In this document: positions 3,709-27,685 of the stretch, in pieces
Numbering within the stretch: the stretch's first letter is position 1
Layout of the letters: every line of letters begins with the position of its first letter
Virus record (IMG/VR): IMGVR_UViG_3300045988_107065
Strand: one strand, 5' to 3'
DNA length: 34,387 nt
DNA from: a virus
Taxonomy: Duplodnaviria > Heunggongvirae > Uroviricota > Caudoviricetes
The notes under the pieces: generated by a model
The model's database searches: none
Told to the model about the DNA's origin: nothing
Seen by the model: only the letters and a program-made list of their open reading frames with translations
Made by a program: the position numbers and the translations under genes

Positions 3709-3711
3709 CTA

Positions 3712-4152
3712 ATGATTAAGCCGATGCACGCTATTACAGCTACCGTTTTGTTTATCCTACCAATTTTTTCGTTTGCAAACGACATATGTTTTAAGAATTT
3801 AATAAATGAGGATATGTGTGCACATGCAAACAAAATTGCATCAGAAGCAGGAAAGTCTCTTCCCATAAAATTGAATGATAATATGTCTATTGTTTCAATA
3901 AATGCAATACTAAACAAACTTTTAGTTGTAGCGCATCTTAATTACAACAACAGCTATTTATCAAAAGTTTATAATGGTGATGTAACCTTAGAAAATAAAT
4001 TAAAGAGTGTAATGCGAAATTATTCAAAATCGAGCATTTGCTCCAACAGGCAAATGAAAGCATTTATTCACCTTGGCGGAGAGATTGAGTATAGGTATGT
4101 ATTTAGTGATGGCAATATATTTGATACATACGCCATCACTAATTGTGAATAG
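3712..4152 (+). CDS. Hypothetical secreted/periplasmic protein (146 aa) with signal peptide
   Basis: Hydrophobic N-terminus (AITATVLFILPIFSFA); AT-rich; stop codon abuts the stop of the convergent gene at 4153. Confidence 0.55.
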   Translation: MIKPMHAITATVLFILPIFSFANDICFKNLINEDMCAHANKIASEAGKSLPIKLNDNMSIVSINAILNKLLVVAHLNYNNSYLSKVYNGDVTLENKLKSVMRNYSKSSICSNRQMKAFIHLGGEIEYRYVFSDGNIFDTYAITNCE

Positions 4153-7542: not shown

Positions 7543-10289
7543 TATTTGCCCCCTGCGTATATATTGCTCGGAAGGTTATTGGCTGAACCATAACCGAATG
7601 GCTTGGTCAGATCTGGAGGAGTATATCCATCTTTATTGCTGAACTGCGGCAGCGGATTGCCTTCTCTCCGCACTCTAGCTTCATCAACACGCTGTTGCTG
7701 GAACTGAATGGTTTGCCTGTACATTGGAGATGTCAGCTGATCCGGCTTGAAACGAACAGGGAGACCATTTTCTCCAATATAATTTCTAGGTTCTATCGCT
7801 CCGTTTGCGTCAGGCTGTAAAACCATAACAGCATAACTCCTATCCCTTGCCGTAAGGCCATCAGAAACAAGTATTAAGTCCGTATCACTGCGAGGACCGC
7901 CAAAGGATTTTGATTTAAGCTCGCGTTTTTCCTGCTCCCACTGCCCCTGTATCCAGTTACCAGCACCATTATTTACTCCGTACAATGCCTCAGGTGCATA
8001 CTTCATAACCTCTGCTTTGCCATTAACCGTAGAAACTCCCCAGGTGGTTCTGATCATGGCATTGGTCATTTTCTCAGCCTGTTCTGCATCGCCGCCTGTC
8101 TGTACAAAGTTAGCATCGTAAATTGTCTGGTAATCTCGCTGATAGGCCGCATTTGATTTTCCTGGATCGGTAATATCCGGAGACCACGAACCAAAGGAAG
8201 TCAGACTGCTGGCGTTATTTTGTGCAGCAGTTGCCCTCGCCGCGACATATTTTTTGTCTCGCATGGCAGTAGAAAGCATCTGTTTCATTCGGTCATCCTG
8301 TTGGAACACCTGGCTGTAAGCCATATCAACAGCCTTATCCTCCGGCACGCCAGCGCGGGAATAATCGTAAACCTTGCCGTAAAATGCCATCGTACTTTTA
8401 TCAAGTGTTGCCGCTGCCGCCGGATTATTATCGAATAACTGACCGTAGAATTTTGCCATCGGGACAACCAGCGCAGGATCTCTTGATGTTGCTCCACTGT
8501 TAAGCATTGTTTTAACCTGAGTTGGTATCATGCCGCTTTTAGTTGTGACGGTGACCAGTGTATTGATGCTCTGCGGATCAGATATGGAAAACGAAGGCGC
8601 GATATCCTGCGCGAAATAACGGTCTACCGCTGCCTGATTGTTTTTGTCGTTCGGGTCCAGCGGGAAGTTATTTTGCATTGAAGACACGAATCTGTTTCTT
8701 CCCTGCTGAATCTCCCACTCCCTATCCATCTCTTTAAATTTGGCCTGCATTTTCTCCCAGCGTTGCTGGTTAGCTGCAAATCCAGGAGCGTTTGGATCCT
8801 GTGGACGTAAACGTTCAAGAATGTCTTGTCGTCCTTCTGGAGTGAGGTCTTTAGCGGCACCAATGACACCTCCATATTGTATCTGCGCCTGCATATCCTT
8901 CCACTTCATAGCGCCAATGCGCGGACCATTGGCCCGGATAAAATCGTCCTCAGAAGGTAACTTCTCAGGTTTCAATCCTTCATCAAGGGCTGAATATGCA
9001 TCTTTAACTACAGTGCTAAGCTGGTCCGCATACTGCTGGCGGAACTGATTTCTCAGCTCATTAGCCTGCCTCAATGCCTGTATTTGCATTTGAGGGCTCA
9101 TAGCATCAAATGCCGCATTGCCCGTATAACGCTTAGGTGAATCAAGGTTAGTTAGACCAAGGGCTGCCGAGATACCAGTTTCAAGCTGTTCGGTGCTATA
9201 AGGCATACTGCCATTTTCGTGTTTAATAATCCCAGCACATAAAGCAGCTAGTGTCTTTGGGTTAGAGATATCAAGCTGATCATTCTCCCCAACACCAAGC
9301 TCACCACACAATGCCCTAATATAAGCATCAGTATTATTACCATCACTAGCCGGAGCATAGCGATTAACAATCTCGCTAACGGTGTCATAGCCTTGACGCT
9401 GGTAAGACAACATATTTTTACCCAACGCGCGGATTCCATGCTCAGGAGTAGCAAACGTTGCAAAACGCCCATCGCTACCGATCTGACCTTCCCACGGGTT
9501 AGATTTGCTCGCTTCAATATTACCAGGGTTATTATTACGTAAACCACGAGCATCCAATGAATTACCATGTGATATTGCACGACTCACACCATCAAGATCC
9601 CCTGGCTCTCCATTAACCTGAAGAAACTCGTTGTATTTTTGAGCGATATTTCCTATCCATGCTTGCTGCCCCATTTGTTCCTTGAGCTGAGTTTTCTGCT
9701 GAACACGCCACTCATCAGGAAGCCCATGCGCATCAGCGTATTGATCAATAGATTCAAATCGCTGCTTGGCTAAATCGACAAATGCTCGGTTATCGCTATA
9801 TAGCCCCGCAGACTGAGTGACAGCCAATGCATTTCCTGACAAATACGTTTGATCTTGGAATTGCTGAAACTGCCCAACTTCATATCGACGTGCCTGATTG
9901 TAATAAGACTGCATAGACTGCTGGAGTTGAAAGGATAATTTATTCCTTTCCTCACTTTCAGGAATTGAGCCTAATAATGCCTGAGCCCTTTCCTGCATAT
10001 TTTTCATAACAGCGTCACTCAGACCAAGAGCGTTTTTACCCTGTTTAGAAATCAGCCCATTTTCAGGGTTGTTAATCTGGTCATCTGCAAATTGGTTAAA
10101 TTGCAGTAACGCCTCCTGTGCCATAGCAACATTCGCTTTCTGCCTGGCTTCACCATATGCCACCGCATACTGATCTGCGACATTCGCCAGCACCTGACCT
10201 GCCTGAGGAACATCGAAGGTCTGAAAACCACCGGTTTGCACACCACGACTTTGCACCTGGCGTCCGGATGTAGTAGGAACAACAGGCAT
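7542..10289 (-). CDS. Large internal virion protein (915 aa; T7 gp15-like position)
   Basis: Size and position; contains a conserved-looking segment NNPGNIEASKSNPWEGQIG...FATFATPEHGIRALGKN whose function I cannot assign with certainty. Confidence 0.5.
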   Translation of the reverse strand: MPVVPTTSGRQVQSRGVQTGGFQTFDVPQAGQVLANVADQYAVAYGEARQKANVAMAQEALLQFNQFADDQINNPENGLISKQGKNALGLSDAVMKNMQERAQALLGSIPESEERNKLSFQLQQSMQSYYNQARRYEVGQFQQFQDQTYLSGNALAVTQSAGLYSDNRAFVDLAKQRFESIDQYADAHGLPDEWRVQQKTQLKEQMGQQAWIGNIAQKYNEFLQVNGEPGDLDGVSRAISHGNSLDARGLRNNNPGNIEASKSNPWEGQIGSDGRFATFATPEHGIRALGKNMLSYQRQGYDTVSEIVNRYAPASDGNNTDAYIRALCGELGVGENDQLDISNPKTLAALCAGIIKHENGSMPYSTEQLETGISAALGLTNLDSPKRYTGNAAFDAMSPQMQIQALRQANELRNQFRQQYADQLSTVVKDAYSALDEGLKPEKLPSEDDFIRANGPRIGAMKWKDMQAQIQYGGVIGAAKDLTPEGRQDILERLRPQDPNAPGFAANQQRWEKMQAKFKEMDREWEIQQGRNRFVSSMQNNFPLDPNDKNNQAAVDRYFAQDIAPSFSISDPQSINTLVTVTTKSGMIPTQVKTMLNSGATSRDPALVVPMAKFYGQLFDNNPAAAATLDKSTMAFYGKVYDYSRAGVPEDKAVDMAYSQVFQQDDRMKQMLSTAMRDKKYVAARATAAQNNASSLTSFGSWSPDITDPGKSNAAYQRDYQTIYDANFVQTGGDAEQAEKMTNAMIRTTWGVSTVNGKAEVMKYAPEALYGVNNGAGNWIQGQWEQEKRELKSKSFGGPRSDTDLILVSDGLTARDRSYAVMVLQPDANGAIEPRNYIGENGLPVRFKPDQLTSPMYRQTIQFQQQRVDEARVRREGNPLPQFSNKDGYTPPDLTKPFGYGSANNLPSNIYAGGK

Positions 10290-10864
10290 CAGTAACCTCC
10301 TATTTTGAATCGGGAGTCAGAATTCATAAAACCTGAGTTAGATAGCATTGGCGTCCCACCACCAGATGTACTTCCTTTAGAGAACGGACTCCACGTCCCA
10401 CCAAACATCTGGTACGCACCGTATGCCTTCAGAGGCGCGGTGAGCAATGTTGTTGCTGCTCCCACATTCCCCTGTTTACGGGCTGAACTGGCTTCTGCTT
10501 TATAGTTGGCAGCCTGAACCTGATAACCGTAAGCCTCGCGTTGCGCGTTATTCACCGTCGTCAGCGAATCAAGAGCGCCAAACTGGGCTGTGTCGCCAAA
10601 TATATCCAGCGCGTTACCTGTAGATAAATCAGCGCCGGTAGCCCCCATTGTCGCCGCCTGTGTACCAAGCCGCTGTCGGGTCTCTCTGCGCCGTTGCTCA
10701 GCTTCAGCGTTACCTCTGTTTATTGCATCATTTGCCTGAGCTGTGGCTATATCTGCGTTCGCTTCTGCAACCTTCGAGGCATACTTTCCCTGTTGGTACT
10801 GGGTGTATGCCTGAATGCCACTCATGGCGAGCATTGCACCACCAGCAATAACCGGATCGCACAT
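10289..10864 (-). CDS. Internal virion protein (191 aa; T7 gp14-like position), Ala/Gly/Gln-rich
   Basis: Position and composition. Confidence 0.4.
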   Translation of the reverse strand: MCDPVIAGGAMLAMSGIQAYTQYQQGKYASKVAEANADIATAQANDAINRGNAEAEQRRRETRQRLGTQAATMGATGADLSTGNALDIFGDTAQFGALDSLTTVNNAQREAYGYQVQAANYKAEASSARKQGNVGAATTLLTAPLKAYGAYQMFGGTWSPFSKGSTSGGGTPMLSNSGFMNSDSRFKIGGY

Positions 10865-11328
10865 TATTTTCTCTCCATGTGAAATCTGTGGAAATTAAGA
10901 CCAAGAGCACCATAAGGCGCGGCTTCTTCAAGCCTGAATCCAAGCCAGTGCAGCCATGCTTTGGCAACATGGTTTCGCTCGTCGACGTAGTTTTCCAGGC
11001 GCGGATAAACTGCCAGCATCTGCTGCAATACAGGGCGGCAGTGGCGCAGAAATGTCTTCTGATATTTTTCAATACGGCTGGTTCCTACCAGCCAGGGCGT
11101 ACCATTGCCACCGATCATTGACGCCGGAGATACGCCAAACATGGTTACCAGTTCTCCGTTCGCAAATCCTGACCAGGCCATAGTCGCAGTGCGAAGACCA
11201 ACACGCAGCGCATCTTCGGTAGTCATCAGCGATACCGCATACAGTTCGTCAATATCAGCCTGACGAACATCCGGCAAAATCATCTGAAGATGCTCTTCGG
11301 TGGCGGGAATAATTTGAACATCGATCAT
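10864..11328 (-). CDS. Hypothetical virion-associated protein (154 aa)
   Basis: Position within the structural operon, translationally coupled to neighbours. Confidence 0.35.
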   Translation of the reverse strand: MIDVQIIPATEEHLQMILPDVRQADIDELYAVSLMTTEDALRVGLRTATMAWSGFANGELVTMFGVSPASMIGGNGTPWLVGTSRIEKYQKTFLRHCRPVLQQMLAVYPRLENYVDERNHVAKAWLHWLGFRLEEAAPYGALGLNFHRFHMERK

Positions 11329-13781
11329 CAGAATCCCCCAACAGTAAGACGAGGAATAACGGCAAGAACAGACAGCGGCAACGGGTCAAGCTGACGGATT
11401 CTTACACGTCCGTTTTTGCCCCAGTTACTGTCCAGTTTCACTTCTACTTTTCCGGTAGCGTCATCAACAGGATCATCGTAGAACTCGAATTCACGCTGTG
11501 GATATTCGTACCATTTACCGCCGGGCGTAGTCGCCCAGATGCCGCGACTGGCATTCACAACCAGAGTAACTGACGGGATCACCTGTTTTTTGTCCAGCAG
11601 CGTTTCCTGTCCGTTAATGTTGATATCCAGTGTTTCGAATTCAGCAGTTATTGGCAGGCCGATGTGCACAACAGCCCCCGGTGATTCCAGCGTGACGGCA
11701 CCTCCGGAAACCACTTTTTGTGGTTCCACGTTCGCATCAGAGAGGATGTTTACGGTCTGGCCTTCAAGATGAGACAAGCCGCCAAATGTCCGGCGCGCCA
11801 TCTGCCAGTTTGTGGTAGCCACATTCCTGAGGGATGGCGGGACGTTCCTGTTAGCACGAACCACTACTGCGGTATTGCTGGTTACAGAAATAATGTCGCA
11901 ACGTAATTCTTTTGACACTTCATCGCCGGTATAAGGGAACTGTAGTTGCGCACCGACATCACTACTGGTGAAGTACGCACCACCAGAAACACTGATTGTA
12001 TATTCCGCGCGGTAATCCCATTCACCAGAACCACCAGTGATGGTCATCGTTCTGTCAGACGTATTTCTTCCATCATAGCTAAGGCCAGAATCAACAAAGA
12101 AAGCATCTTCATCGCTGGTAAATAAACGGCTGGACAGTCGCTCGATGTATCTCACTGTTTGCCCGTTAACGGTTCGGTTAACGACGAAATACACCGCATC
12201 TTCATTGCCTTCGCTGATACTGCATGTGCTTTCATATTTTCCGGTACTGGACTGTGGTGCCCATGCAAAAACCTGTTGATCACGCAGATAGGTCATCACC
12301 AGTAATTTACCGTCATCACGAATGCAGAAGGCGCTGGAGTAAGGGACAATAGAGAAGCACCAGTCAACAATGCTGTGCTTCTGAAAAAGATGATTGGCAA
12401 GGATGGTCAGGTCGTTCCCCTGATAGCCGTCAACATCGAATGAGTAGGCCAGATCACGGACAACACTGCCTTTCTCCTGGACGAACAGAGCAATATTCGC
12501 CACGGCAATTGGTGGGACATTGCTCGAGCCATTTGATCCCTGAGAGCTGAATGCAAATGATGATGGGGTTAACACTTTGTTCTGGTCGCCGGTGATGACG
12601 TACTCACCTCCGGAAGTCAGTGCCACCAGCGAACCGACATCAATCAGGTGGCGGATCTCATTAACCTGACGCCCGGCATAGGTGTAGATAATTCTGTCGT
12701 CATCCTGCGTAGGATTGCTTTTGCCAAAATCCTTATAATCCCCGGTACGGCTGGCCCAGATAGTCTGAGGGAACGCAGTCGATGCGGCGAAGTAAAGGCG
12801 TTGTTGATAATAAACAACAGTGCCAGGATAACCGTTAATACTGTTCCAGGCATATTTAGCCCATTTATAGCTGGCATTATCCTCGCCAACTACCTGCGAA
12901 GGGATATAGGAAATCACCTCGGCAGTTGCAGTAGTTCCATTTGCAGCAGAGATACGGGCAATGCCAAAACCACTGTGCAGATACTCCCACTCAATGCCGG
13001 TATCATCATCACCGGATCCGCCCCAGCCATCCCATGATGTGCCTTCTGTATGCGAAGGGCGCAAAGTGCCTGTTTTGCCTGCTGTAACGGCGCGATAGTA
13101 GTTACTGTCTGCACGGCGAATATCGCCAATCGACGTACTCTTACTGGTTTCCCATACCGGCACAGAATCCACTGCAGGCTGTTCCAGATAGAACAATTTG
13201 CCTACCTGCTCCGCGCCAAAAATAGAGGCGCTTGCCGTTAACGTAATTGTCCCGGTGCTGGCGCTGGCATAAACCGTCACTGACTCGTCAATATTGATAT
13301 CTTCAAATGGCCCGTTCTTCGTTACCACATCAACCAGTTGCCAGTTGTCATGCGCATAGCGGCGCAACTCTTTCGGCGGGTATGCCGGATGAACCAGCGT
13401 AAGCACGTCTGCGCTTTGCGTGAATTTAATTCGGAACAGATCGGCTTCAGTATATGGCGTGGCAATTTCATAAATAACATTGCTGCTGTTCAGCACCAAC
13501 GCACCATCTTTGATAACGCGCATGTACTGGTGTCCGAACTCCAGAGCATAAGTCTGAACCGTCGAGAACTGGAACGGGATCAGGCGGCATTTCCGATTTG
13601 GGTATTTGGCGGCACCGACAAAACGCGTACCAGGTCGATTCTCAACGCCGCCATACTGCCGCACGATAAAGTTATCGCACTTGCGCAATGCCACCTGGTA
13701 CTTCGCCATGTCGATACGACCGTACAACGATGGTCCAATCTCACCACCGGCAAAGCTGGGCTGGATCCAACTGATAGCCAT
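11328..13781 (-). CDS. Tail tubular protein B-like (nozzle; 817 aa)
   Basis: Size (T7 gp12 is 794 aa) and position after the gp11-like gene; beta-rich composition. Confidence 0.55.
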   Translation of the reverse strand: MAISWIQPSFAGGEIGPSLYGRIDMAKYQVALRKCDNFIVRQYGGVENRPGTRFVGAAKYPNRKCRLIPFQFSTVQTYALEFGHQYMRVIKDGALVLNSSNVIYEIATPYTEADLFRIKFTQSADVLTLVHPAYPPKELRRYAHDNWQLVDVVTKNGPFEDINIDESVTVYASASTGTITLTASASIFGAEQVGKLFYLEQPAVDSVPVWETSKSTSIGDIRRADSNYYRAVTAGKTGTLRPSHTEGTSWDGWGGSGDDDTGIEWEYLHSGFGIARISAANGTTATAEVISYIPSQVVGEDNASYKWAKYAWNSINGYPGTVVYYQQRLYFAASTAFPQTIWASRTGDYKDFGKSNPTQDDDRIIYTYAGRQVNEIRHLIDVGSLVALTSGGEYVITGDQNKVLTPSSFAFSSQGSNGSSNVPPIAVANIALFVQEKGSVVRDLAYSFDVDGYQGNDLTILANHLFQKHSIVDWCFSIVPYSSAFCIRDDGKLLVMTYLRDQQVFAWAPQSSTGKYESTCSISEGNEDAVYFVVNRTVNGQTVRYIERLSSRLFTSDEDAFFVDSGLSYDGRNTSDRTMTITGGSGEWDYRAEYTISVSGGAYFTSSDVGAQLQFPYTGDEVSKELRCDIISVTSNTAVVVRANRNVPPSLRNVATTNWQMARRTFGGLSHLEGQTVNILSDANVEPQKVVSGGAVTLESPGAVVHIGLPITAEFETLDININGQETLLDKKQVIPSVTLVVNASRGIWATTPGGKWYEYPQREFEFYDDPVDDATGKVEVKLDSNWGKNGRVRIRQLDPLPLSVLAVIPRLTVGGF

Positions 13782-15105: not shown

Positions 15106-15543
15106 TTAACCAGTTACTTTTGAGCGGATCGGGTACGGCGTATTGGCATCAACATCCAGACTGATACCCGCAGTGAATTTGCCGGCCGTTAGTGGGCCAG
15201 TTGCGACGGAGTAGTTAACACGCAGATATCGCTGAACACCGGCTGGCACCTTTGCAGAAACAACTCGCTTACCTGCTGTCAGGGTGGCCTTTGCCAACGC
15301 ACCACTATCATAAATAGTGGTCCAAGAGCTGTTATTCTCACTCGTCTGCAACTGGATGTTTACAGTTGCCTCACCACTTGCCGTGGCGGCTTCGTTAACC
15401 AGCCCCCAAAACTCAAGCGGGTAACCCACACCGATATCGCGACGGTTTCCATCAATTGGACCGAGATCGATTACGTCAGTAGAAGCCGCGGTATCAGTTA
15501 CCGCCTGTGCTTCGGAGAACATCAACAGTTTGTCGGTGATCAT
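15106..15543 (-). CDS. Hypothetical head protein (145 aa), possible decoration/cement protein
   Basis: Position immediately downstream of the major capsid gene; beta-rich sequence. Confidence 0.35.
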   Translation of the reverse strand: MITDKLLMFSEAQAVTDTAASTDVIDLGPIDGNRRDIGVGYPLEFWGLVNEAATASGEATVNIQLQTSENNSSWTTIYDSGALAKATLTAGKRVVSAKVPAGVQRYLRVNYSVATGPLTAGKFTAGISLDVDANTPYPIRSKVTG

Positions 15544-15562
15544 CTTCTTTCTCCATTAGTGG

Positions 15563-15582
15563 GTCTGTTACGACCCACAGGT
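15563..15582 (-). other. Stem-loop downstream of the major capsid gene
   Basis: gtgggtc-tgttac-gacccac. Confidence 0.35.
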
Positions 15583-15594
15583 TAATAACAGGCG

Positions 15595-16587
15595 TTACAC
15601 CACGCGGGCTTCTGTTTCCAGAAGCGCATCAGTTTCACGGATTGGTACACCACGGAATGACGTCCACCACTCGCCTTCAGTCTCTTTTACGCTAATCGCC
15701 AGAGATGTTTTCTCCAGAGACTGCAGATCAAGAGCCTGGCCTACAGTGCGGTTCATGTAGAACACCGGGCGACCCATGCCACGGTTTGGAATGCGATGCA
15801 GTGCTTTAACCATCAACTTCGCAATATTTGCGGCAGAGGAAGGTTCTGAAAGATTGCTGACATCGATGTTTGCAATGCGAACAACATAACGCCAGTCACG
15901 CAGAGCAAGTCCGTTATCCCATTTGTAATGGGTGCGATAGCCTTCGTACTTGCCGCCATTAGCATCTTCCAGTGTCACCTGGCCTTTATCTTCCATCTTG
16001 ATGCCAGCCTTCTGCCCTTTCGGGAAGATGCCATGCACGGTGTTTTCGCCCCACACTACTAACCAGATTGAGGTGTTATCTGTACCCGTGCCACCAGCAT
16101 CAATGATGTTCTGAGCATTACCCGCAGACAGGCTGGAATAGCGGGAGGACAGTCCCATAAACTGCTGAGGGTTAACGCTGGAATCACCATAAAACAGTGT
16201 CTGCGCCATCTGCTGATTCATCGCTTCAATAAATGCGCGGTCTTCAGACAGGCGGAATTCGGCGGTATTACCGTTCAGATCAGCCAGTGACTTATCGACT
16301 TCAGCATAGGTTTCCAGCATTCCAACGGAATCGGTGACCTGCACTGTGGTTGATTTGCTTGGCTGTACGCCATAGTTCAGCAAACGCCAGGTGGCTGAAG
16401 GTAAACCAGAACGAATGGTGGTTCGGTGTCCGGTAGGAAGGTTCCCTTCGACAAAAGGCATATCCTGAAGGATCGGGTTAGTTTGACCGAGAAGCTCGAT
16501 AATCTTATCGACTTTCCCGTTTGGATCGACGCGCTTACCCCAGTCAGCCAGCGTTAGCGCAGTTAAGCCTTTAACAGCCATTGTCAT
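15595..16587 (-). CDS. Major capsid protein (330 aa)
   Basis: Position after the scaffold gene and size; no sequence-level family assignment possible by eye. Confidence 0.6.
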   Translation of the reverse strand: MTMAVKGLTALTLADWGKRVDPNGKVDKIIELLGQTNPILQDMPFVEGNLPTGHRTTIRSGLPSATWRLLNYGVQPSKSTTVQVTDSVGMLETYAEVDKSLADLNGNTAEFRLSEDRAFIEAMNQQMAQTLFYGDSSVNPQQFMGLSSRYSSLSAGNAQNIIDAGGTGTDNTSIWLVVWGENTVHGIFPKGQKAGIKMEDKGQVTLEDANGGKYEGYRTHYKWDNGLALRDWRYVVRIANIDVSNLSEPSSAANIAKLMVKALHRIPNRGMGRPVFYMNRTVGQALDLQSLEKTSLAISVKETEGEWWTSFRGVPIRETDALLETEARVV

Positions 16588-16595
16588 TTCCTCTC

Positions 16596-17291
16596 TTATT
16601 TGCCATAGAGCACTTCGGCCGCACTACGCTGGCCTTCATTACCACCGGTGACCATGCCATCTTCAGACATCGCCTTTCCGATTTTCACGAACGTTTTGAC
16701 CAGATCAGGGTGATTACCCAGTCCGGTGGTGTTCAGATATTCTTTGAGTTCAGGTGTCCCGAACTGGTCAAGCGCACGCTGTGCGGCGCTAAGGTTAGAA
16801 ATCAACTTGTCGCCACCGATTTCTTTGTCAGCTTTTACATCCGCAGCCCACTGCTCGGTTGTTTTCTGCCAGGCTTCTGCCTGGCGCTGCTGAACACCTG
16901 CCAGAATCTTCGGATAAGCATCAACCAGCTTTTGCGCTTGCTCGTTGGTCAGGTTTAGTTCTCGCGCCACCGGCTCGAATTCCTTCAACGCTTCTGTATC
17001 CAGCTCTACGCCTTCGGCAGCCTGAAACTCGTACTTCTCAGGCGCACCCTCTGGTTTATCGCCGCCCTTTTTTTCATCCTGCTTATCGTTTTCAGGCTTT
17101 TTGTCATCAGCAGGTTTATCGCCATCAGCAACAGGTTGTGGCTTATCACCTTCCGGTTGTGATGGATCACCAACTGGAGCAGGGTTATCACCTGCAGGCG
17201 CTGACGGTTCTGACGCAGCCGGAGCTGCTCCACCATCGACTGGTTGCTCATTGCAAAGACGGCGATACAGCAAACGCTCAAATAAATTCAT
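16596..17291 (-). CDS. Scaffolding protein (acidic, Pro/Asp/Lys-rich, helical C-terminus)
   Basis: Composition and position between portal and capsid; ATG at 17291 with AGGAG 5 nt upstream. Confidence 0.55.
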   Translation of the reverse strand: MNLFERLLYRRLCNEQPVDGGAAPAASEPSAPAGDNPAPVGDPSQPEGDKPQPVADGDKPADDKKPENDKQDEKKGGDKPEGAPEKYEFQAAEGVELDTEALKEFEPVARELNLTNEQAQKLVDAYPKILAGVQQRQAEAWQKTTEQWAADVKADKEIGGDKLISNLSAAQRALDQFGTPELKEYLNTTGLGNHPDLVKTFVKIGKAMSEDGMVTGGNEGQRSAAEVLYGK

Positions 17292-17293
17292 GA

Positions 17294-17590
17294 TCACTCC
17301 TGTTCACTGGCCTCTTTGGCCATCTTCAAATACTGTTCAGGGCAATGCGCCATAACGCGCTGAAACAGTTCCAGCGCCAGATTGCGTTGCCCCTCATTAA
17401 ATGCCATTGCCATAGAGTCCATCGGTGAGATAGCGGAAAACACACGGCCTTTCTCCAGCACCGACCAGACAACGCGACGCCCCTGTTCACTGCTCATGAC
17501 AAAGCGAATGTCATCAATTTCACGCTGTGCCATGTCACATTGCTTACGGGCGTTTTCTTCTTTCAGTTGATCATCTTCGTAATCTGTCAT
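17294..17590 (-). CDS. Hypothetical protein (98 aa) between portal and scaffold
   Basis: ORF translationally coupled to portal. Confidence 0.4.
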   Translation of the reverse strand: MTDYEDDQLKEENARKQCDMAQREIDDIRFVMSSEQGRRVVWSVLEKGRVFSAISPMDSMAMAFNEGQRNLALELFQRVMAHCPEQYLKMAKEASEQE

Positions 17591-19266
17591 TGTGATTGCC
17601 CACCCTGACCACTAACTGCATTCGCCATAGCTGACAAAACACTCGGCTCCGAAGTTTTAGCTTCGCTTAGCGTCTTGGCACCCTGTGCCGCCGCCATCCC
17701 CATCGCCATCATTTGTTGCTGCTGTTGTTGCTGTGCCCGTTGCTGGCGAGCCTGCTCAACCTGTTCCTGCGGAACAATGACGGTTGGAGACACTCCGGAC
17801 ATATCAGCGAATGCATCGATCGCCTGATCAACGTTGAGTTTGTCGAGAGCTTCTGGTTTCGCTTGCGCAAGTTGACCAATGAAGTTAACCGTGGACGCCA
17901 GACTGGACAGGCCGATAGACTTCTGCGCCTGAGCCATGACGGAAATGTATTCGACCTTCAGGGGCATACCTTCCATCGCGTCAGGCGGTGGCGGCAGCAT
18001 GTTTTTACGCACCATCATCGAGAAAGCGCGGTCAATGAGAGGGTTAAGACATTCGTCGTTCAGACGCTCCAGAACCGGCCCCAACATCAGAAGCTTTTCT
18101 TCTTTCATTTCGATCACTGCTTCAACAGGCATCGAGCGGGTATTGATGTTCTGCAACATCATGAACAGATCGACAAAGTAGGCGCTGTTAATGATTTGGC
18201 GGGTGTCCTGAATGTCTGCTACCAGATCTGCTGTACTGGGGTTAACCAGATAAGCAGGCCTGAAACCATCCTGACCAGTAATCTGATCGATATACGTGAT
18301 GTCGCCAGGAAGAAGAGAGGCGCGCTGATTCTTGAGGGAAGTCGGAGCAACCATCGGCGGATTGGTGGCTTTATCAATCAACTGCGACTTGCGCTTCTGG
18401 AGAAGCTGCAATGCCTTAACAGGTCCAAGCGCCAGCATACCCGGGCATGATGATCCATAAACATCTTCGCCGTTAACTTCCCAGCGCGGAGCCATAATTG
18501 GAAACTCATCGAATCCGGACTCACGCAACAACTTGTCGTTATCGCCGCCAACCTCGTAATAAACCGATTTGAATGGCTTGTTCTTGCTATCCAGCTTCGA
18601 TGTATCGCGGTCAATGTTCGGGTAAACCGAATGCATAACTTCAATCCACTTCTCGTAGGTTCCGCTTTCCCACATGCTTTTTACGGATTCGCTGACGTTA
18701 TTTAGCCCGAACTCCTGAACAAGCTGACGAACAGTCATAGAGAACTTGCGAAAACAGGTGTCCACACTGCCACGAGGTGAGTTAGCCAGGTAGTAACTGC
18801 CTATCGGGAATGGCATTGTGCGAATGATGTCCTCGTCATCCTCCAGCACTGCCATTGCACCAGTGCTGTATGTGCCGAGGCTTCCGTATAACTGCGGCAG
18901 CGACTGATAGAGATTCGACTTATTGAACATATCGTTCATGCGGTTCTGCACCGCCTCAAGCCACAACTTAACAGGGCCATAATCCATCATTTCAGGATCT
19001 GGCGTAGCCAGGCGAAACCACGGACGCGCGGGGCTTGTGATGCCTGACATCATGCCGCTGGCGAGAGTGCGCGCCGCCATAGTCCCGGTCGAATCAATAA
19101 TGCGTGTATTGCGTCGATCGTTACGGTTGACCTCAGAAGTCAGAAAGCGGGAACCACGCGGGTTGATGTAATCACTCAACTCGCGCCAGTGCGGCTCGAA
19201 CGACTGACGCTCGCTTTCAAGTTGTGCGAACTGTTTGTTCAATCGCTCTTTAGTTGTTTCCGCCAT
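17587..19266 (-). CDS. Portal (head-to-tail connector) protein, podovirus type
   Basis: 559 aa; N-terminus and Gln/Ala/Met-rich C-terminal tail resemble T7 gp8-family connectors; downstream of terminase. Confidence 0.75.
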   Translation of the reverse strand: MAETTKERLNKQFAQLESERQSFEPHWRELSDYINPRGSRFLTSEVNRNDRRNTRIIDSTGTMAARTLASGMMSGITSPARPWFRLATPDPEMMDYGPVKLWLEAVQNRMNDMFNKSNLYQSLPQLYGSLGTYSTGAMAVLEDDEDIIRTMPFPIGSYYLANSPRGSVDTCFRKFSMTVRQLVQEFGLNNVSESVKSMWESGTYEKWIEVMHSVYPNIDRDTSKLDSKNKPFKSVYYEVGGDNDKLLRESGFDEFPIMAPRWEVNGEDVYGSSCPGMLALGPVKALQLLQKRKSQLIDKATNPPMVAPTSLKNQRASLLPGDITYIDQITGQDGFRPAYLVNPSTADLVADIQDTRQIINSAYFVDLFMMLQNINTRSMPVEAVIEMKEEKLLMLGPVLERLNDECLNPLIDRAFSMMVRKNMLPPPPDAMEGMPLKVEYISVMAQAQKSIGLSSLASTVNFIGQLAQAKPEALDKLNVDQAIDAFADMSGVSPTVIVPQEQVEQARQQRAQQQQQQQMMAMGMAAAQGAKTLSEAKTSEPSVLSAMANAVSGQGGQSQ

Positions 19267-19280
19267 TTCAATGACTCCGG

Positions 19281-19487
19281 TTACTGACCAAGCAGCGTTT
19301 TACCGCTGGTATTAGCGGTTGATGTGTCACCCTGAGAACCGGTAAGCAGCGTAGAACTACGACCAGCAGCAGCGCGACGGCGACGAGTTTCTTCGTCGCG
19401 GGCATCAACAACGGCGGCATCCTGCTCCTGTGGTGCTGCCTGAACTTCTGGTGTTGCAGGCACTGACGGTGAGCTACCCATGCACAT
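19281..19487 (-). CDS. Small hypothetical protein (68 aa), Ala/Arg-rich
   Basis: ATG with GGAG 8 nt upstream, immediately upstream of portal. Confidence 0.35.
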   Translation of the reverse strand: MCMGSSPSVPATPEVQAAPQEQDAAVVDARDEETRRRRAAAGRSSTLLTGSQGDTSTANTSGKTLLGQ

Positions 19488-19577
19488 ATCAATGACTCCG
19501 TACGCAATTAAATTATTACCAATTTAACCACATATGATTTATTTATCGTAGACAGTTGACATTTAACGCACGAATTA

Positions 19578-19592
19578 TTACCTTTCAGGTAA
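19578..19592. promoter_or_regulatory. TTACC-N5-GGTAA palindrome (site 4) just downstream of a TTGACA hexamer (19556-19561)
   Basis: attaccTTTCAggtaag. Confidence 0.45.
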
Positions 19593-19914
19593 GCAAATGG
19601 TTCATTCCGGTTATTAACCTGACTGGCTTGTCGTTAAATTGAACAGGTGGAGTGAGCTTTTATTTTGAGCAGTACGGCGTATGGCACATGCGCCGATAGC
19701 GGTCTGGATACGTTTAAGGGGCACCCTCCCTTGCTCGGGCAAACGAACCAGGTAGCCGGAATGTGCAAGTCGAGCGGTTTTATTCCGCGCACGGGGATTC
19801 ACCATCCCGGCGATTCGGTGTGACGCCTCGGAAGAGACGAGGGTACAACGATGAGAGCATTTATGGAGCCGCGACAAAGTGTGGCGCCTTAACAGGCTAA
19901 GTGCTCTCAGCGTT

Positions 19915-19991
19915 GTGGCATTAGCTCAGTTGGACAGAGCAACCGCCTTCTAAGCGGTTGGTCGCAGGTTCGAATCCTGCATGCCACGCCA
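19915..19991 (+). tRNA. tRNA-Arg (anticodon UCU)
   Basis: Cloverleaf folded by hand: acceptor GTGGCAT/ATGCCAC, D-arm GCTC/GAGC, anticodon stem ACCGC/GCGGT with loop CTTCTAA, T-arm GCAGG-TTCGAAT-CCTGC, discriminator G and encoded CCA; 77 nt. Confidence 0.9.
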
Positions 19992-20034
19992 GAATCACGC
20001 CTAAGGACCGTGATGCCAGAAGTTCCAGGGGCTT

Positions 20035-20077
20035 GGCGGTGATGGTTTCCCTTGAAGGACTATCACCGCCCTTTTTA
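20035..20077 (+). terminator. Rho-independent terminator downstream of the tRNA
   Basis: 9 bp stem ggcggtgat/atcaccgcc followed by CTTTTT. Confidence 0.6.
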
Positions 20078-20154
20078 CAGCAGGACGCCATTGCGATGAC
20101 TTCATGCTGTAAACCAGTACAGCCACGGAAGGCATAACTCATTGCTTCCAGTTC

Positions 20155-20178
20155 GCCCGGTTCGCCGGGCATTTTTTT
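20155..20178 (+). terminator. Second rho-independent terminator
   Basis: gcccgg-ttcg-ccgggc followed by ATTTTTTT. Confidence 0.65.
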
Positions 20179-20189
20179 AAGGTGAGATT

Positions 20190-20546
20190 ATGAACGACCA
20201 GCAAATCGAAAAAGAAATCGTTGAGAAAGGCAAAACCGCTCCGCGAGTTACGCCTCAATATATCGAAAGCATCATTCTTGAAGAGCATTTCTTTACTGCT
20301 TATGACGGCATTCGTGCTGCCAATATGGGCGTTGGCGATTCATGGACAGCGCATAAATCTACAGACCTCCTGACTTTCTGCGTATTGGTACTGAAGAATG
20401 GCTTCACCGTCACCGGAGAGAGTGCCTGTGCAAGTCCGGAAAATTTTGATGCAGAAATTGGTCGGAAGATTGCCCGGCAGAATGCTGTAAACAAAATCTG
20501 GATGCTCGAAGGTTACTTGCTGAAGCAGAAGTTAAGCGAGCAATAA
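20190..20546 (+). CDS. Hypothetical protein (118 aa) adjacent to the phage tRNA
   Basis: ATG with AAGGTGAG RBS; no family recognised. Confidence 0.55.
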   Translation: MNDQQIEKEIVEKGKTAPRVTPQYIESIILEEHFFTAYDGIRAANMGVGDSWTAHKSTDLLTFCVLVLKNGFTVTGESACASPENFDAEIGRKIARQNAVNKIWMLEGYLLKQKLSEQ

Positions 20547-20563
20547 CACCGTGACATGTCACA

Positions 20564-20590
20564 AACAGCCAGCCGATGAGCTGGCTTTGT
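20564..20590 (+). terminator. Hairpin terminator between convergent genes
   Basis: agccagc-cgatga-gctggct followed by TTGTTTT. Confidence 0.5.
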
Positions 20591-20636
20591 TTTATCCTCA
20601 TCAGAGGATATCAACGACATTATCCCCACTAGCGGA

Positions 20637-22112
20637 TTAAGCATAGGGATCGTAATCTGTGATGGCCTTGCCTTGCTGGTTCTGCTGCCCGGGAATTCGC
20701 AGACGCTTTGACACAGGGAAAGCAAACGTCAGCAGTAGCGCATCGCCTTTACCAGGAGAACGCCCAAGCCGCTCCTTGATATCTTCCTTCGGTTCGATAA
20801 CGATTTTACCGTCCACTCGAACTTTATACTCTGCCGCCGACAGGTCGTCCGCTGTTTCCTGGTCATCCAGCATCCCGCCCAGCCTCAGCCATGTCTTGCA
20901 TGAGTTGAACATCTCCCCACGCTTGTTGAGCATCTGCGGGTCAGTAGACGCGCCACCGAACGGAACAAGTTGCCATGTGCGCCCCCAACCATCACCGATT
21001 GACTTCAGACCGGTACCGTAACCGAAGTCGATGAACACCGCGTCAGCCTGATACTGGTCTTCAAAGTCAGCGATACGCTTCGCCATAATCAGATCGTCGG
21101 TGGTCTTGTTACCAGTCCATAGCACCTTACTGTGCAGCCCCTGCCGCAGGTATATCACAGCGTCATCAACGCCGGAGTATGCCGGGTCAACGCCGATTAT
21201 CACCGGAGCATGCGCCACCTGCGCAGCGGTTACCACCCGTTTCATTGCCTCATCAGTAAGACCGGTAGGGATAAACTGCAATTCAGATGCATCAGGGAAT
21301 ATGCCGCGCACACGGATTTTAACGAAGTCGCTATCTTCCCCGTAGTCATCAACCCATTTCTGCAACTGCTGTTTGTTAGTGCCTTCCACCGTCCGGCTGT
21401 CAATCTGCGCAGTTTTCCAGCGGTGTTTATATTTGCGGAAACATTCGCGGAAACGCCCGGTGTTACGTGTAGGGTTTCCGAATGCCACCCAGATAATCTC
21501 AGTGTCTTCGTCCGTCAGCGCACCCTCTGCTACCTCCCACACCAGATCGGCAATGTTGGATGCTTCGTCGAATACCACGATGATGCGTTTGCGCTCGTTG
21601 TGTAGTCCGGCGAATGCCTCAGTGTTGTGCTCAGACCAGGGGATTGCGTCAGCTCGCCACCGCTTGTCGTGCCCAGGGTCATTGCTGTACATCGCGGTAG
21701 CGGTACAGGTAAACCAGTCTTTCGTGATAGCAAGGTTCGACCACTTGATAATTTCCGGCCAGGTCTTCGTTCGTAGCTGGTTGTCGGTGTTGGCGGTCAC
21801 CACGACCTTACAATCCTCGCAAGTGGACATGCCCCAGTTGATCAGCATTGAGATGAATGCGGATTTACCAATACCGTGACCCGAAGCGCGTGCCAGCATA
21901 AGCGGCTGATAGCGCGTCTCTGGATTCTGCAGGTGATCACGTATCTCTCGGAACGCATCAGCCTGCCACTGACGTGGACCGGTGGCATGTGCTAATTCAG
22001 TCCCCTCTTCCCCCCACGGGAACGCATAGAGGGCATAGCCAAGCGGATCGTGAGTGAACCCTGCAATATCCTCGATCAACTGCTCTTCAGGAGATAACGC
22101 TGTATCTGTCAC
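20637..22112 (-). CDS. Terminase large subunit
   Basis: Walker A (ARASGHGIGKS), Walker B (IIVVFDEAS), C-terminal nuclease-like region; 491 aa; 4 nt overlap with upstream small subunit. Confidence 0.9.
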   Translation of the reverse strand: MTDTALSPEEQLIEDIAGFTHDPLGYALYAFPWGEEGTELAHATGPRQWQADAFREIRDHLQNPETRYQPLMLARASGHGIGKSAFISMLINWGMSTCEDCKVVVTANTDNQLRTKTWPEIIKWSNLAITKDWFTCTATAMYSNDPGHDKRWRADAIPWSEHNTEAFAGLHNERKRIIVVFDEASNIADLVWEVAEGALTDEDTEIIWVAFGNPTRNTGRFRECFRKYKHRWKTAQIDSRTVEGTNKQQLQKWVDDYGEDSDFVKIRVRGIFPDASELQFIPTGLTDEAMKRVVTAAQVAHAPVIIGVDPAYSGVDDAVIYLRQGLHSKVLWTGNKTTDDLIMAKRIADFEDQYQADAVFIDFGYGTGLKSIGDGWGRTWQLVPFGGASTDPQMLNKRGEMFNSCKTWLRLGGMLDDQETADDLSAAEYKVRVDGKIVIEPKEDIKERLGRSPGKGDALLLTFAFPVSKRLRIPGQQNQQGKAITDYDPYA

Positions 22113-22705
22113 TGATTACCATCCTGACGTTCTTTGAGTCGCTTCCTGGCTGCCGCTATGCGATCAGCAATTGTCACATTCACATTAACATCCAGGCGTT
22201 CTTTGAATGCGTTGACGTCGACGTGCTTACCAATCAGTTCGAGGTTCTTCACCTTGTCAGGCCATTTAATTTTTTTGAGGATTGTCTCTATCGAATCCTC
22301 GTTCATGTTCATGATGGTCGATGACAGATCAAAGCCACTAAGCGTAGTGCGCCAGATTTTCGGCCACTCACGGATTGGTTTAAGGCTCCCATCGTCGTTG
22401 AGGATATCGATCACGTCCATCTGGTCGATCTCCACCAGGCGCATGAGAACGTAATCAGCACTGACGCGCATTCGTTTGTTGCGCTCCTCCATCAACTCGG
22501 CAATCCGTTTTTGAATGCGTTCATCGCGCATCATGACACTGGCTTTAACTGCCGCTGTATTTGGGGAGAATCCTGCGTTAATCGCTGCCTGAGTCTGGTT
22601 TTCAGGCGTTTTGATGTATGACTGGCAATAAGCCTCCTGCATTGCTGTGAGCGGCTTAAATTGCGTTGATTTGCGTTTATAGGTTTTAGGTTCAGCAGGC
22701 ATCAT
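22109..22705 (-). CDS. Terminase small subunit
   Basis: Conserved small-terminase N-terminal region (AYCQSYIKTP...AAINAGFSPNTAAVKASVMMRDERIQ); probable ATG at 22705 (track ORF extends to a TTG at 22783). Confidence 0.75.
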   Translation of the reverse strand: MMPAEPKTYKRKSTQFKPLTAMQEAYCQSYIKTPENQTQAAINAGFSPNTAAVKASVMMRDERIQKRIAELMEERNKRMRVSADYVLMRLVEIDQMDVIDILNDDGSLKPIREWPKIWRTTLSGFDLSSTIMNMNEDSIETILKKIKWPDKVKNLELIGKHVDVNAFKERLDVNVNVTIADRIAAARKRLKERQDGNQ

Positions 22706-22823
22706 AACCACCGTGGTAATAGTTACCGTTGTGGTAATAGTACCATGCAAAATAAAGCCGCCATAGTTGGCGGCAGTATTCAAAACCCATCAAATTCATC
22801 ATGCATAATCTACTCGTAACATG

Positions 22824-25011: not shown

Positions 25012-25620
25012 TCATGCCGATCTATTTTTCATCAGTGATTCATAAAACTTTTGCCACTTATGCCGACCGAAATTAGCCTTCGAGTTACAGCTCGAACAAA
25101 GGCAAATAAGGTTCTCCTGACGACAGTCTTGCTTGTCGTAATTGATGTGATGAGTTGTTAGCCTTTTGTCTGTTCCATCACAACCTGGGTTCTGACAAGT
25201 AAAACCATCTCGCTCAATAACCCTCTTGCTCGTTTCTCGGAAATCCCACGGATACGGCAATCTCGATAATCCACCAGACCAGTTTGGATTTCCTTCCCCC
25301 TTCATCAGAGAAGAACGCATTATGTTGGAACACTGTTTCGAGCAGCATTTATGACGCTTCTCATGACTCAAGAAAACGGAGAACGAAGATCCGCATACGC
25401 AGCATATTTTTAATACTCGCTTTAGTTCCCGATTTACCGTCTTGCCTCGCTGTGAAATTCCTACACACTGAAGTGAGCAGAACCTTGAAGATGAGTTGGC
25501 TCGCTTAACCTGATATTGCCTGCCACATACGGAACAAACCTTTTCGATTTTCCCACCCTTCCAATTCGGGTTTTTATCACCGGATACAATCAATCCCGCA
25601 GCATTGGGCTTCTCGCTCAT
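25012..25620 (-). CDS. HNH endonuclease with two N-terminal zinc-ribbon repeats
   Basis: HNH-like core (TTHHINYDK...NLICLCSSCNSKANFGRH); duplicated NPNW(K/S)GG...C-x2-C...C-x3-C units. Confidence 0.75.
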   Translation of the reverse strand: MSEKPNAAGLIVSGDKNPNWKGGKIEKVCSVCGRQYQVKRANSSSRFCSLQCVGISQRGKTVNRELKRVLKICCVCGSSFSVFLSHEKRHKCCSKQCSNIMRSSLMKGEGNPNWSGGLSRLPYPWDFRETSKRVIERDGFTCQNPGCDGTDKRLTTHHINYDKQDCRQENLICLCSSCNSKANFGRHKWQKFYESLMKNRSA

Positions 25621-25970
25621 AGTTCCTCAACCTCCCATCCACCACCGAGCTTTTTAGGTTTTGGATAAGCAACCTGAAAGACAAACGGATAGCTGTCTGC
25701 CGCAACCTTCATCTTGACTCTCGCATCGTCAGTAAAGACTGACTTACTTCCCTTAACGTCCACCATCACCAACTGCCCGTCAGCCAACATCACGGCAAAA
25801 TCTACAGTCAGGAAGCAGTTGTCAGCTAATCGCAGCTTGATACCCTCAAATCGATACCAGGCGATTTCCCCTGCACGTTTACGCAGCTCAAGGTGCTGGC
25901 AATACGCAGATTCTGTTTTGTTCATCTGGCCTGTTTTGAGTCGACCAAGAGCCTGTATCTGTTTTCTCAT
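25617..25970 (-). CDS. Small phage protein (117 aa), possible PD-(D/E)XK-fold nuclease (DUF1064-like)
   Basis: TVDFAV...VDVKG arrangement resembles a D...(D/E)-x-K nuclease core; assignment tentative. Confidence 0.4.
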   Translation of the reverse strand: MRKQIQALGRLKTGQMNKTESAYCQHLELRKRAGEIAWYRFEGIKLRLADNCFLTVDFAVMLADGQLVMVDVKGSKSVFTDDARVKMKVAADSYPFVFQVAYPKPKKLGGGWEVEEL

Positions 25971-25973
25971 GAT

Positions 25974-25988
25974 TTACCTCTGAGGTAA
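25974..25988. promoter_or_regulatory. TTACC-N5-GGTAA palindrome (site 5), overlapping the RBS of the 25617-25970 gene
   Basis: atttaccTCTGAggtaatt. Confidence 0.45.
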
Positions 25989-26035
25989 TTAAAAACCACA
26001 TAAGACACGAAATCAATAGAGTTTAGAATATTTTG

Positions 26036-26050
26036 TTACCCTACAGGTAA
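26036..26050. promoter_or_regulatory. TTACC-N5-GGTAA palindrome (site 6)
   Basis: gttaccCTACAggtaatt. Confidence 0.45.
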
Positions 26051-26087
26051 TTATCAAGGCGTAAAAAAATGCGCTATCGCGCTGGTA

Positions 26088-26888
26088 TTACTTGATAAAT
26101 CCTGCCGCCTTTCCCCGCCTGTATTCCTCCATCAGCCACTGAGCCGGTGTTATTCCCCCAAGGGTGGCGGCGTTAGGCATGCACCCGAAACTTCGCCCTG
26201 GTGGATGGTAAACGTCTCCCCCTGTGTCCGGAGGTGTACTCATGGGTTCTGGCTTTGCCTGTATGCTGATCACCGGATCGGGTATCTGCTGTCCGGAAGC
26301 CACCTTTTTCGCCCAATCATCGAGCAGCCTGCGCGCGTGTTTCTCAACCTCAATCTCGCTAAGCTGGCGCTGATACATTGCACGGCGTGTATCACATACG
26401 ACCCAGTACATAACAGGATGCCGCCACGGGAATCTTTCGGGACCACCAGGATATAAACTTTTTTCCTTGCTGTACCGGTGAAACTCCGCCATCACATCGT
26501 CAATGGTGACGCCAAGAACCATCTTGCTGTCTTTACACCACTTGATGAATTGCCCTGGCGACGGCCAGAACGGAGACTCACTGGCGCGGGCGTGGCGCAT
26601 ACCAGCAGAAACCTGTTCACGGGTTCGGATCCCCCCTTCGGCAAACGCAGCAATCCACTGCTGTTTTGCAGCAACTTCCTGCTCTGGCGTCTTCAGGTTG
26701 GTTACCACTGCCGCCGGAAACAGCTGTTTCAGCTGTTTGAAAAGGGCATCAACAAGCCTCTCTGCTGACATGTTCACCACATTGTCATTGTTGACGTACT
26801 GATGCTCATAACCTGACATGCGAGAAAGGGCTTCTCCGTCACGGTTTTGTATCGCGGTAAAAACGTTGTTCACAAGAAATCCTCCCAT
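26088..26888 (-). CDS. Replication protein P-like (helicase loader)
   Basis: Strong resemblance to lambda P core (QQWIAAFAEGGIRTREQVSAGMRHARASESPFWPSPGQFIKWCKD vs RQWVLAFRENGITTMEQVNAGMRVARRQNRPFLPSPGQFVAWCRE, lambda P recalled from memory). Confidence 0.8.
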   Translation of the reverse strand: MGGFLVNNVFTAIQNRDGEALSRMSGYEHQYVNNDNVVNMSAERLVDALFKQLKQLFPAAVVTNLKTPEQEVAAKQQWIAAFAEGGIRTREQVSAGMRHARASESPFWPSPGQFIKWCKDSKMVLGVTIDDVMAEFHRYSKEKSLYPGGPERFPWRHPVMYWVVCDTRRAMYQRQLSEIEVEKHARRLLDDWAKKVASGQQIPDPVISIQAKPEPMSTPPDTGGDVYHPPGRSFGCMPNAATLGGITPAQWLMEEYRRGKAAGFIK

Positions 26889-27685
26889 GCTTCAGGGCTG
26901 TTCCAGTGCGGAACGTTGTTATCAGGTAATGTTGATTGCTTCTGTCTGCTAATCTGCAGCCGCCTTGCCAGCTTCTGCTCCCACTGTGCCTGATGGTATG
27001 CCTTACCCTCAGCCATCCAGTAAATTCTGAACTCTGCAAGTTCCTGTGCCGTTGGCAGACTGTCCAGGTAGATCCCCTGCAATGAGCTTTTCCGAAGAAA
27101 GTCATCTGATGGCTGCCATTGTTCATGCATGACAAATTTGCCTAATTGCCCTGGCCCACCAGGAGGAACAAAGTTATTCATCACGGCGTTGTTTGCGTTG
27201 GGGTCATGATGCACAGAATCCCCGTTTTTTGTCCTGCTCTCCCTCTCTTGGTTAAATGACTGGTTATATGACTGGTTCTGGATCCCGTTTTTGGGATCAT
27301 TCAACATCCCGTTTTTGGGATCATTCAACATCCCGTTTTTGGGTATATTCCCGTTTTCGGTAACATTACCGTTTTCGGGTTCATTGCCCCCCTCCCGGTT
27401 GCCTTTAATGTTCCCGTTTTTGGTTATATTAAGAGAGAAAACCCGCACTCTTTTTGTCGCTCCCTTTCTCTCTCCGGTATCTGAAATAAGCCCCATTTTC
27501 ATGAGCGATATAAGTCCGGCCTGCACGGTTTTTTTATTCAGGCAAGTGTCTTTAACGAGGCGTTCTATGCTGGGGTAGCAGAGGTTATATTCATCGGCTC
27601 TGTCAGCCATCGAGAGCAGTATGAGCTTTAATGATGAGCTACCTGGATCTGTCTCCCAGGCCCAATCTGTTGCATGTCTGCTCAT
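26870..27685 (-). CDS. Replication initiator, lambda O-like (N-terminal HTH, C-terminal DnaT-like region) containing the origin iterons
   Basis: N-terminal HTH-type region; Asn/Gly repeat segment encoded by DNA iterons; immediately upstream of the P-like gene. Confidence 0.65.
   Translation of the reverse strand: MSRHATDWAWETDPGSSSLKLILLSMADRADEYNLCYPSIERLVKDTCLNKKTVQAGLISLMKMGLISDTGERKGATKRVRVFSLNITKNGNIKGNREGGNEPENGNVTENGNIPKNGMLNDPKNGMLNDPKNGIQNQSYNQSFNQERESRTKNGDSVHHDPNANNAVMNNFVPPGGPGQLGKFVMHEQWQPSDDFLRKSSLQGIYLDSLPTAQELAEFRIYWMAEGKAYHQAQWEQKLARRLQISRQKQSTLPDNNVPHWNSPEAWEDFL
27282..27425. repeat. Iteron array (putative origin of replication) inside the O-like gene
   Basis: Six copies of CCGTTTT(T/C)GG, including two perfect 24 bp tandem units (atcccgtttttgggatcattcaac). 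Confidence 0.65.

Follow-up and report, generated by a model that had tools for sequence, protein, structure and literature searches.

The viral sequence record IMGVR_UViG_3300045988_107065 (34,387 nucleotides [nt]; this whole stretch of DNA is referred to as the window) represents a phiV10/epsilon15-like (Uetakevirus) temperate podovirus prophage, and the gene considered here is located between its portal and large terminase genes at positions 20190..20546 of the plus strand. Its open reading frame (ORF) starts with ATG, ends with TAA and encodes 118 amino acids (aa; translation re-checked), and no in-frame alternative start is present 5' of the ATG at 20190. The protein matches Pfam family PF13876 (Phage_gp49_66; 'Phage protein (N4 Gp49/phage Sf6 gene 66) family') over the complete profile (1-82 of 82; residues 20-115) with an E-value of 1.7e-34 and 118.6 bits (cut-off 27); it belongs to phrog_322 of PHROGs ('unknown function') and is named 'Gp49 family protein' in RefSeq. 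PF13876 is the family of Acb4 from phage SPO1, a tetrameric sponge that sequesters 3'3'-cyclic GMP-AMP (3'3'-cGAMP) and related signals of the cyclic oligonucleotide-based antiphage signalling system (CBASS; Chang et al., PMC11722364). The exact 118-aa sequence is listed as A0A0C5F232 (E. coli) in Table S3 of the same paper, alongside proteins of phiV10, epsilon15, Sf6 and N4, so that the description of the gene as uncharacterised and of unassigned family in an earlier note on this DNA is not supported. On the sequence evidence its Acb4 family membership is secure, and the annotation 'Gp49 family protein' can be taken as a synonym of Acb4. The gene is catalogued in the largest anti-CBASS family known, the mechanism of which was published in December 2024. 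By itself it adds little; its hypervariable loop, a leader RNA and a set of tRNA-like RNAs are by-products worth more.

Homologues of the protein fall into at least 8000 clusters at 90% identity, and those found all carry PF13876. A homologue search seeded with SPO1 Acb4 retrieved only five SPO1-like proteins and did not bridge the clades, which were connected by an alignment-seeded search; the family alignment comprises 146 sequences. A phmmer search against the Protein Data Bank (PDB) returned a single entry, 9E4W (SPO1 anti-CBASS 4). The AlphaFold2 monomer model has a predicted local distance difference test score of 94.6 and a predicted template modelling score of 0.85, and shows the Acb4 protomer fold with a helical N-terminus, a three-stranded antiparallel sheet and a long C-terminal helix. 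In the Foldseek comparison against the PDB, which the earlier note had proposed as a check, the 13 best matches are all chains of 9E4W with a probability of 1.00, and nothing else credible was found. The PADLOC models gave no match for the ORF, which is expected because PADLOC covers defence and not anti-defence.

Based on sequence and structure model, the product of the gene is very probably an immune-evasion protein of the Acb4 family and a sponge for CBASS cyclic dinucleotides. The anti-defence half of the function guessed in the earlier note thus finds support by homology. From its relatives we infer that four copies would assemble into a pinwheel tetramer, whose inter-subunit pockets would bind and sequester the products of the host CBASS cyclase; the CBASS effectors would then not be activated and the phage could replicate. 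The SPO1 protein has been crystallised with cGAMP (9E4W) and does not bind 3'3'-cyclic di-AMP (c-di-AMP). Binding of 3'3'-cGAMP was seen for all eight diverse homologues purified; the ones encoded by phages of Gram-negative hosts additionally bound 3'3'-c-di-AMP but not c-di-GMP (PMC11722364). The predicted ligand of the window protein is 3'3'-cGAMP and, given the Gram-negative host of this phage, unlike that of SPO1, probably also c-di-AMP.

SPO1 Acb4, the founding PF13876 member, shares the Pfam family, the core fold and the format of a small phage protein with the window protein, with 38% identity over 48 aa. Ten ligand contacts were mapped in SPO1 (K36, F48, E49, V56, Y57, F62, N63, I66, T70 and K81). 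Three of them are identical (F48, F62 and I66 correspond to F72, F86 and I90), the EIGR motif is also kept (four of the ten if this context is counted), and N63, a backbone contact, is represented by D87. Several points weigh against the sequestration of CBASS dinucleotides. SPO1 residues E49, V56, Y57, T70 and K81 are replaced by T73, C80, A81, I94 and M105, and the beta1-beta2 turn, the source of K36 in SPO1, has given way to a 22-residue hypervariable insertion. The guanine-reading residues K36 and E49 and the phosphate contacts Y57, T70 and K81 are thereby changed, so that the ligand range cannot be read off from SPO1. Moreover, the eight tested homologues are not named in the text of Chang et al., and may or may not include the present clade. 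Finally, no sigma-70-like promoter is recognisable between the terminator hairpin T1 and the acb4 ATG, and two intrinsic terminators are located upstream of the gene.

Residues F72, T73, C80, A81, F86 and I94, all equivalent to SPO1 contacts, show a conservation of at least 90% in the alignment of 146 sequences. The residues that replace SPO1 contacts reach the same level across the proteobacterial clade, and some of them are common to the functional Acb4 of phage N4. This conservation indicates a pocket that is maintained within the clade and chemically unlike that of SPO1, with an exact ligand range that is not secure. The N4 protein, called gp49 in the Pfam name and gp48 in PMC12657230, shows 43% identity over 100 aa and is the nearest relative identified for which experimental data exist. 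Like the window protein it contains an insertion ahead of beta2, and T, C and F are shared at the pocket positions; unlike the window phage, N4 is virulent and its Acb4 carries a C-terminal Cys-rich tail. Later work reported dissociation constants of 111 nM for c-di-AMP and 13.7 uM for cyclic UMP-AMP (cUA), and identified N4 Acb4 as the trigger sensed by the guard systems PanDA and Panoptes. The two pockets differ at A81 (V in N4), I94 (Y) and M105 (E), and the N4 ligand data may not transfer.

A pocket unlike that of SPO1 at six of ten positions, together with the loss of the K36 turn to the insertion, would also fit a sponge with the Acb4 fold that mainly captures another signal, such as 2'3'-c-di-AMP, trinucleotides, the glycocyclic ADP-ribose (gcADPR) of Thoeris or the cyclic oligoadenylates (cOA) of type III CRISPR; the insertion would then set the specificity and the label 'anti-CBASS' would be wrong. 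Such a shift is in line with the variation of Acb4 homologues in c-di-AMP (cAA) binding by host type and with the about 100-fold preference of N4 Acb4 for cAA over cUA. We nevertheless regard it as unlikely, given the binding of 3'3'-cGAMP by every one of the diverse homologues tested and the near-invariance of the pocket across the proteobacterial clade, N4-like proteins included.

The hypervariable insertion occupies codons 38-59 (20301..20366, plus strand) between beta1 and beta2, a connection that is a tight turn without insertion in SPO1 and in minimal family members of 98-100 aa. In 120 cluster representatives, the entropy is about 0 bits at residues 60-112, which hardly vary, and mostly 2-3.6 bits at residues of about 38-59. 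The 37 distinct alleles from phage loci combine two N-terminal variants and at least ten unrelated loop types of differing lengths with one C-terminal core. The ratio of nonsynonymous to synonymous substitution rates (dN/dS; Nei-Gojobori) reaches 0.57 in the loop, compared with 0.22 in the N-terminus and 0.06 in the core (residues 60-118; dS about 0.8), with dS of about 0.8-1.1 over the three parts. Together with the Pfam match and the number of homologous clusters, the strong constraint on the core bears out the claim of a real ORF. Sf6 gene 66, phiV10 p03 and the epsilon15 homologue have a core near-identical to that of the window protein and differ in the loop and the N-terminal variant; none of the three is described as tested in the literature searched. 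Identical loop types occur in Uetakevirus and P22-like phages (ZX5 with 611R6; locus L049 with phage Huey), which is indicative of the movement of whole genes between phage lineages. Two alleles (L045, L048) are frameshifted after residue ~83-85 and represent decaying copies or assembly errors. A description of the hypervariable Acb4 loop was not found in the literature searched; a localised loop in an otherwise frozen protein offers a handle on the evolution of sponge specificity or on the escape from Panoptes and PanDA.

The acb4 gene is part of a plus-strand cassette within a minus-strand operon of small terminase, large terminase (20637..22112), a 68-aa gene (19281..19487) and portal (17587..19266), in agreement with the opposite-strand placement behind the tRNA terminators described in the earlier note. 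At the head of the cassette lies a promoter-like element, TTGACA-N17-TACCTT (19556..19584, plus strand; read from the sequence), whose hexamers and spacing are both conserved in Salmonella phage SPN9TCW and in divergent loci; a promoter scan instead gives the overlapping TAGACA-18-AATTAT at 19549-19578. The TTGACA-N17-TACCTT element is the only conserved promoter-like site, and the leader, the tRNA and two terminators separate it from acb4, ~630 nt further 3'. Three terminator hairpins follow on the plus strand. T1 (20035-20070), located 3' of the tRNA, has a 14-bp stem with a free energy (dG) of -22.0 followed by CTTTTT, and its stem is paired in SPN9TCW despite altered bases. T2 (20155..20178 including the T-run; hairpin 20155-20170) consists of GCCCGG-TTCG-CCGGGC (dG -11.2) followed by AT7, and shows a compensatory change from GG/CC to AC/GT in SPN9TCW. 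Its T7 run abuts the Shine-Dalgarno sequence AAGGTGAG (20179-20186), which ends 3 nt 5' of the ATG and is retained in SPN9TCW before an unrelated gene. T3 (20567-20586; dG -11.5, then TTGTTTT) lies downstream of the stop codon. The strong ribosome-binding site and the clean terminator reported in the earlier note are thus both present. None of T1, T2 and T3 has a T-run on the minus strand, so that the minus-strand operon can be read through and plus-strand transcription is bounded.

A 16-mer taken from the spacer between T1 and T2 and used to search IMG/VR retrieved 120 loci (L007-L126), nearly all of which share the layout portal, 68-aa gene, leader, cargo and large terminase (terL). The conserved surroundings, here called the chassis, are 97-100% identical among phages whose cargo differs. 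T2 and the ribosome-binding site delimit the exchangeable slot upstream, the stop codon and T3 downstream (window 20187-20546). Among 100 callable cargo ORFs, Acb4 is the most frequent type (40), followed by a 282-aa transmembrane/coiled-coil protein (21; phrog_4780), a 142-aa protein (16; phrog_4846), a Tad2-like protein (6; PF11195), a 143-aa Cys-rich protein (4; phrog_18493) and an Acb2/Tad1-like hairpin protein (1; PF24729). Nine loci harbor other cargo (two share a 60-aa ORF, seven are singletons), and the slot is empty in three, where the called ORFs are spurious and antisense to terL. One example of an exchange is SPN9TCW. In a four-way DNA alignment, its promoter region, leader, tRNA, T1, T2, ribosome-binding site, stop-codon context and T3 correspond to those of the window, with compensatory changes in the hairpins, and surround the gene of an unrelated 168-aa lipoprotein-like protein (phrog_11227; L004 3118-3624). 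In P22-like phages, similarity to the window begins only at 20187.

The gene is hence present, absent or replaced between conserved flanks of otherwise near-identical phages and has its own terminator, which identifies it as accessory cargo and corroborates the moron placement proposed in the earlier note. Its position between terminase and portal genes and the two frameshifted relatives could be taken as signs of an ordinary structural or housekeeping protein or of a relic without function. This explanation is scarcely credible in view of the opposite orientation, the absence or replacement of the gene in phages with 97-100% identical chassis and the strong purifying selection; searches of Pfam and PHROGs gave no structural-family match for the ORF, and a homology of this kind, which the earlier note had named as grounds for abandoning its reading, did not emerge.

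Tad2 (PF11195) and Acb2/Tad1 (PF24729), which occupy the same slot in sister phages, pursue the same strategy as Acb4, namely the sequestration of immune signals by small homo-oligomers, and differ from it in fold, family and ligand set. The alternation of three known nucleotide-sponge families in one slot provides independent contextual support for a counter-defence role of acb4. It also turns the slot into a cheap guilt-by-position source of candidate anti-defence genes. The cargo proteins of 282, 142, 143 and 168 aa have no match above the Pfam threshold, and PADLOC gave no assignment for the unknown cargoes, with only weak coiled-coil matches for the 282-aa protein. Their position makes them candidates for anti-defence or exclusion genes; sequences of these unknown cargoes are found in L008, L025, L007 and L004 (3118-3624). 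A comparable anti-signalling hot spot with Acb4, Tad2 and unknown genes at a fixed position has been reported for N4-like phages (bioRxiv 10.64898/2026.06.04.730250). Unlike the slot of the window it belongs to another phage group and lies between replication genes, and a chassis of tRNA and leader RNA is not described there. The phage phiV10 carries the gene in the same slot between terL and portal, and in Sf6-type and P22-like phages acb4 is located after the lysis genes, without a tRNA. In phage Huey the Acb4 homologue (L003 1769-2269 and 2504-2884 for the pair) lies beside a Tad2-like gene; both are annotated as 'anti-CRISPR protein' in GenBank, which looks like a mislabelling of two nucleotide-sponge genes.

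Upstream of T1 the cassette encodes a tRNA-Arg(UCU) with an encoded CCA end (19915..19991, plus strand; ARAGORN; Rfam tRNA 73.3 bits). The pairing with this tRNA had led to the suggestion of a translation-related function in the earlier note, and the Acb4 fold does resemble double-stranded-RNA-binding domains, release factors and ribosome hibernation factors. It is, however, highly improbable that the protein binds RNA or acts in translation together with the neighbouring tRNA. Among the slots, Acb4 is found with the tRNA in 28 and without it in eight cases, and other cargo in 37 and 20 cases, respectively (Fisher p=0.25), which rejects a specific coupling; the P22-like copies lack the tRNA altogether. 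A dependence of acb4 on tRNA-Arg(UCU) is rejected as well, since none of its four Arg codons is AGA or AGG. Across the phage, AGA and AGG (AGR) account for 19% of the Arg codons and are concentrated in tail/ejection and replication genes. Head, portal and terminase genes use them for 0-7% of their Arg codons, most tail/ejection genes for 16-67% and several early genes for 22-64% (window 2378-13781 and 25012-27685 compared with 15106-22783), and this uneven usage may explain why the phage carries the tRNA. Because the cargo varies, acb4 also occurs without the tRNA and its codons are free of AGR, we assign the tRNA to the chassis, where it would serve AGA/AGG-rich phage genes and not acb4. The acb4 gene represents an independent cargo module beside a tRNA of the shared chassis. 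An 83-aa ORF on the minus strand (19921..20172; L001 3442-3693) runs antisense to the tRNA and T1. The phiV10 and ZX5 annotations list it as a hypothetical protein (PhiV10p04); it overlaps the entire tRNA gene and is probably not a gene.

In divergent relatives, the position of the tRNA is held by tRNA-like elements of 90-210 nt that belong to several types (L021, L035, L090, L095, L064, L022, L055, L024, L083, L078, L066, L077 and L088). They have in common an acceptor-like stem (TTGTGGT...ACCACAA), a discriminator base, CCA and the same trailer, and their bodies are variable; some possess normal D and T arms and a grossly enlarged anticodon region. ARAGORN at standard settings detected no tRNA in most of these elements, and none matched an Rfam family at the gathering score in a scan of 14 such loci.

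The tRNA is preceded by a conserved structured non-coding leader RNA of ~330 nt (19590..19914, core about 19676-19914, plus strand). Its minimum free energy has a z-score of -2.77, and the RNAalifold consensus of 12 diverse sequences contains 50 pairs, nine of them with compensatory changes, with 97.5% of the cells paired. The covariation score of 0.212 compares with 0.121 in shuffled alignments (reached in 0 of 500) and with at most 0.075 when the partners were slid. A variable insert is found within a long hairpin directly 5' of the tRNA, whose arms GAGAGCATT and AGTGCTCTC enclose about 45 nt. Rfam scans of the window (E<=1), of 14 loci (gathering score) and of the loci from P1, cdtI and Phytobacter (E<=0.1) returned no match for the leader. 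No Rfam family accounts for the leader or for the exchangeable tRNA-like RNAs.

The leader core is not confined to Uetakevirus. P1 and P7 carry it between trnI and ban (L154 1523-1692, corresponding to P1 71022-71191), and in lambdoid phages such as cdtI and those of the Stx2c type it directly follows cI at the head of the leftward early operon (phage cdtI: L155 2499-2685; further loci L127-L153). This is the position of nutL in lambda, and these lambdoids are described as N-less. Altogether the core was found in genomes of 25 Enterobacterales species and is unannotated everywhere; no description of it was found in the literature searched. A homologue of the HK022 put RNA can be rejected, as nhmmer gave no match anywhere in the HK022 genome, and so can the prophage small RNAs AgvB, AsxR, Pas and STnc100, which occupy different loci and whose Rfam families gave no match to the leader in the scans. 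Matches of an 18-mer from the leader in Bacteroides, Oscillospiraceae and Azonexus contigs are short chance matches. That the leader acts in cis in read-through or processing is only an idea.

The order of promoter, leader RNA of ~240-330 nt, RNA position, two terminator hairpins and protein position allows a broader, still tentative reading, to which we give a minor share of our confidence: acb4 might be one payload of a conserved two-slot accessory platform of epsilon15/phiV10-like phages, with a protein slot dedicated to counter-defence. If so, phrog_4846, phrog_18493 and perhaps phrog_4780 and phrog_11227 would represent novel antagonists of immunity, the leader would be a novel phage RNA acting in cis, e.g. 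for the read-through of terminators by RNA polymerase, and the choice of captured signals would be tuned by the hypervariable loop of Acb4. No description of the Uetakevirus slot was found in the literature searched. Seen as a whole, the observation of the earlier note is confirmed and its interpretation partly supported.

The cassette is also encountered in sequenced hosts. One complete E. coli genome is 100% identical over the 1,161-bp region, and its prophage adjoins guaA. The tRNA-acb4 cassette is present in 223 of 5,426 complete E. coli genomes (about 4%).
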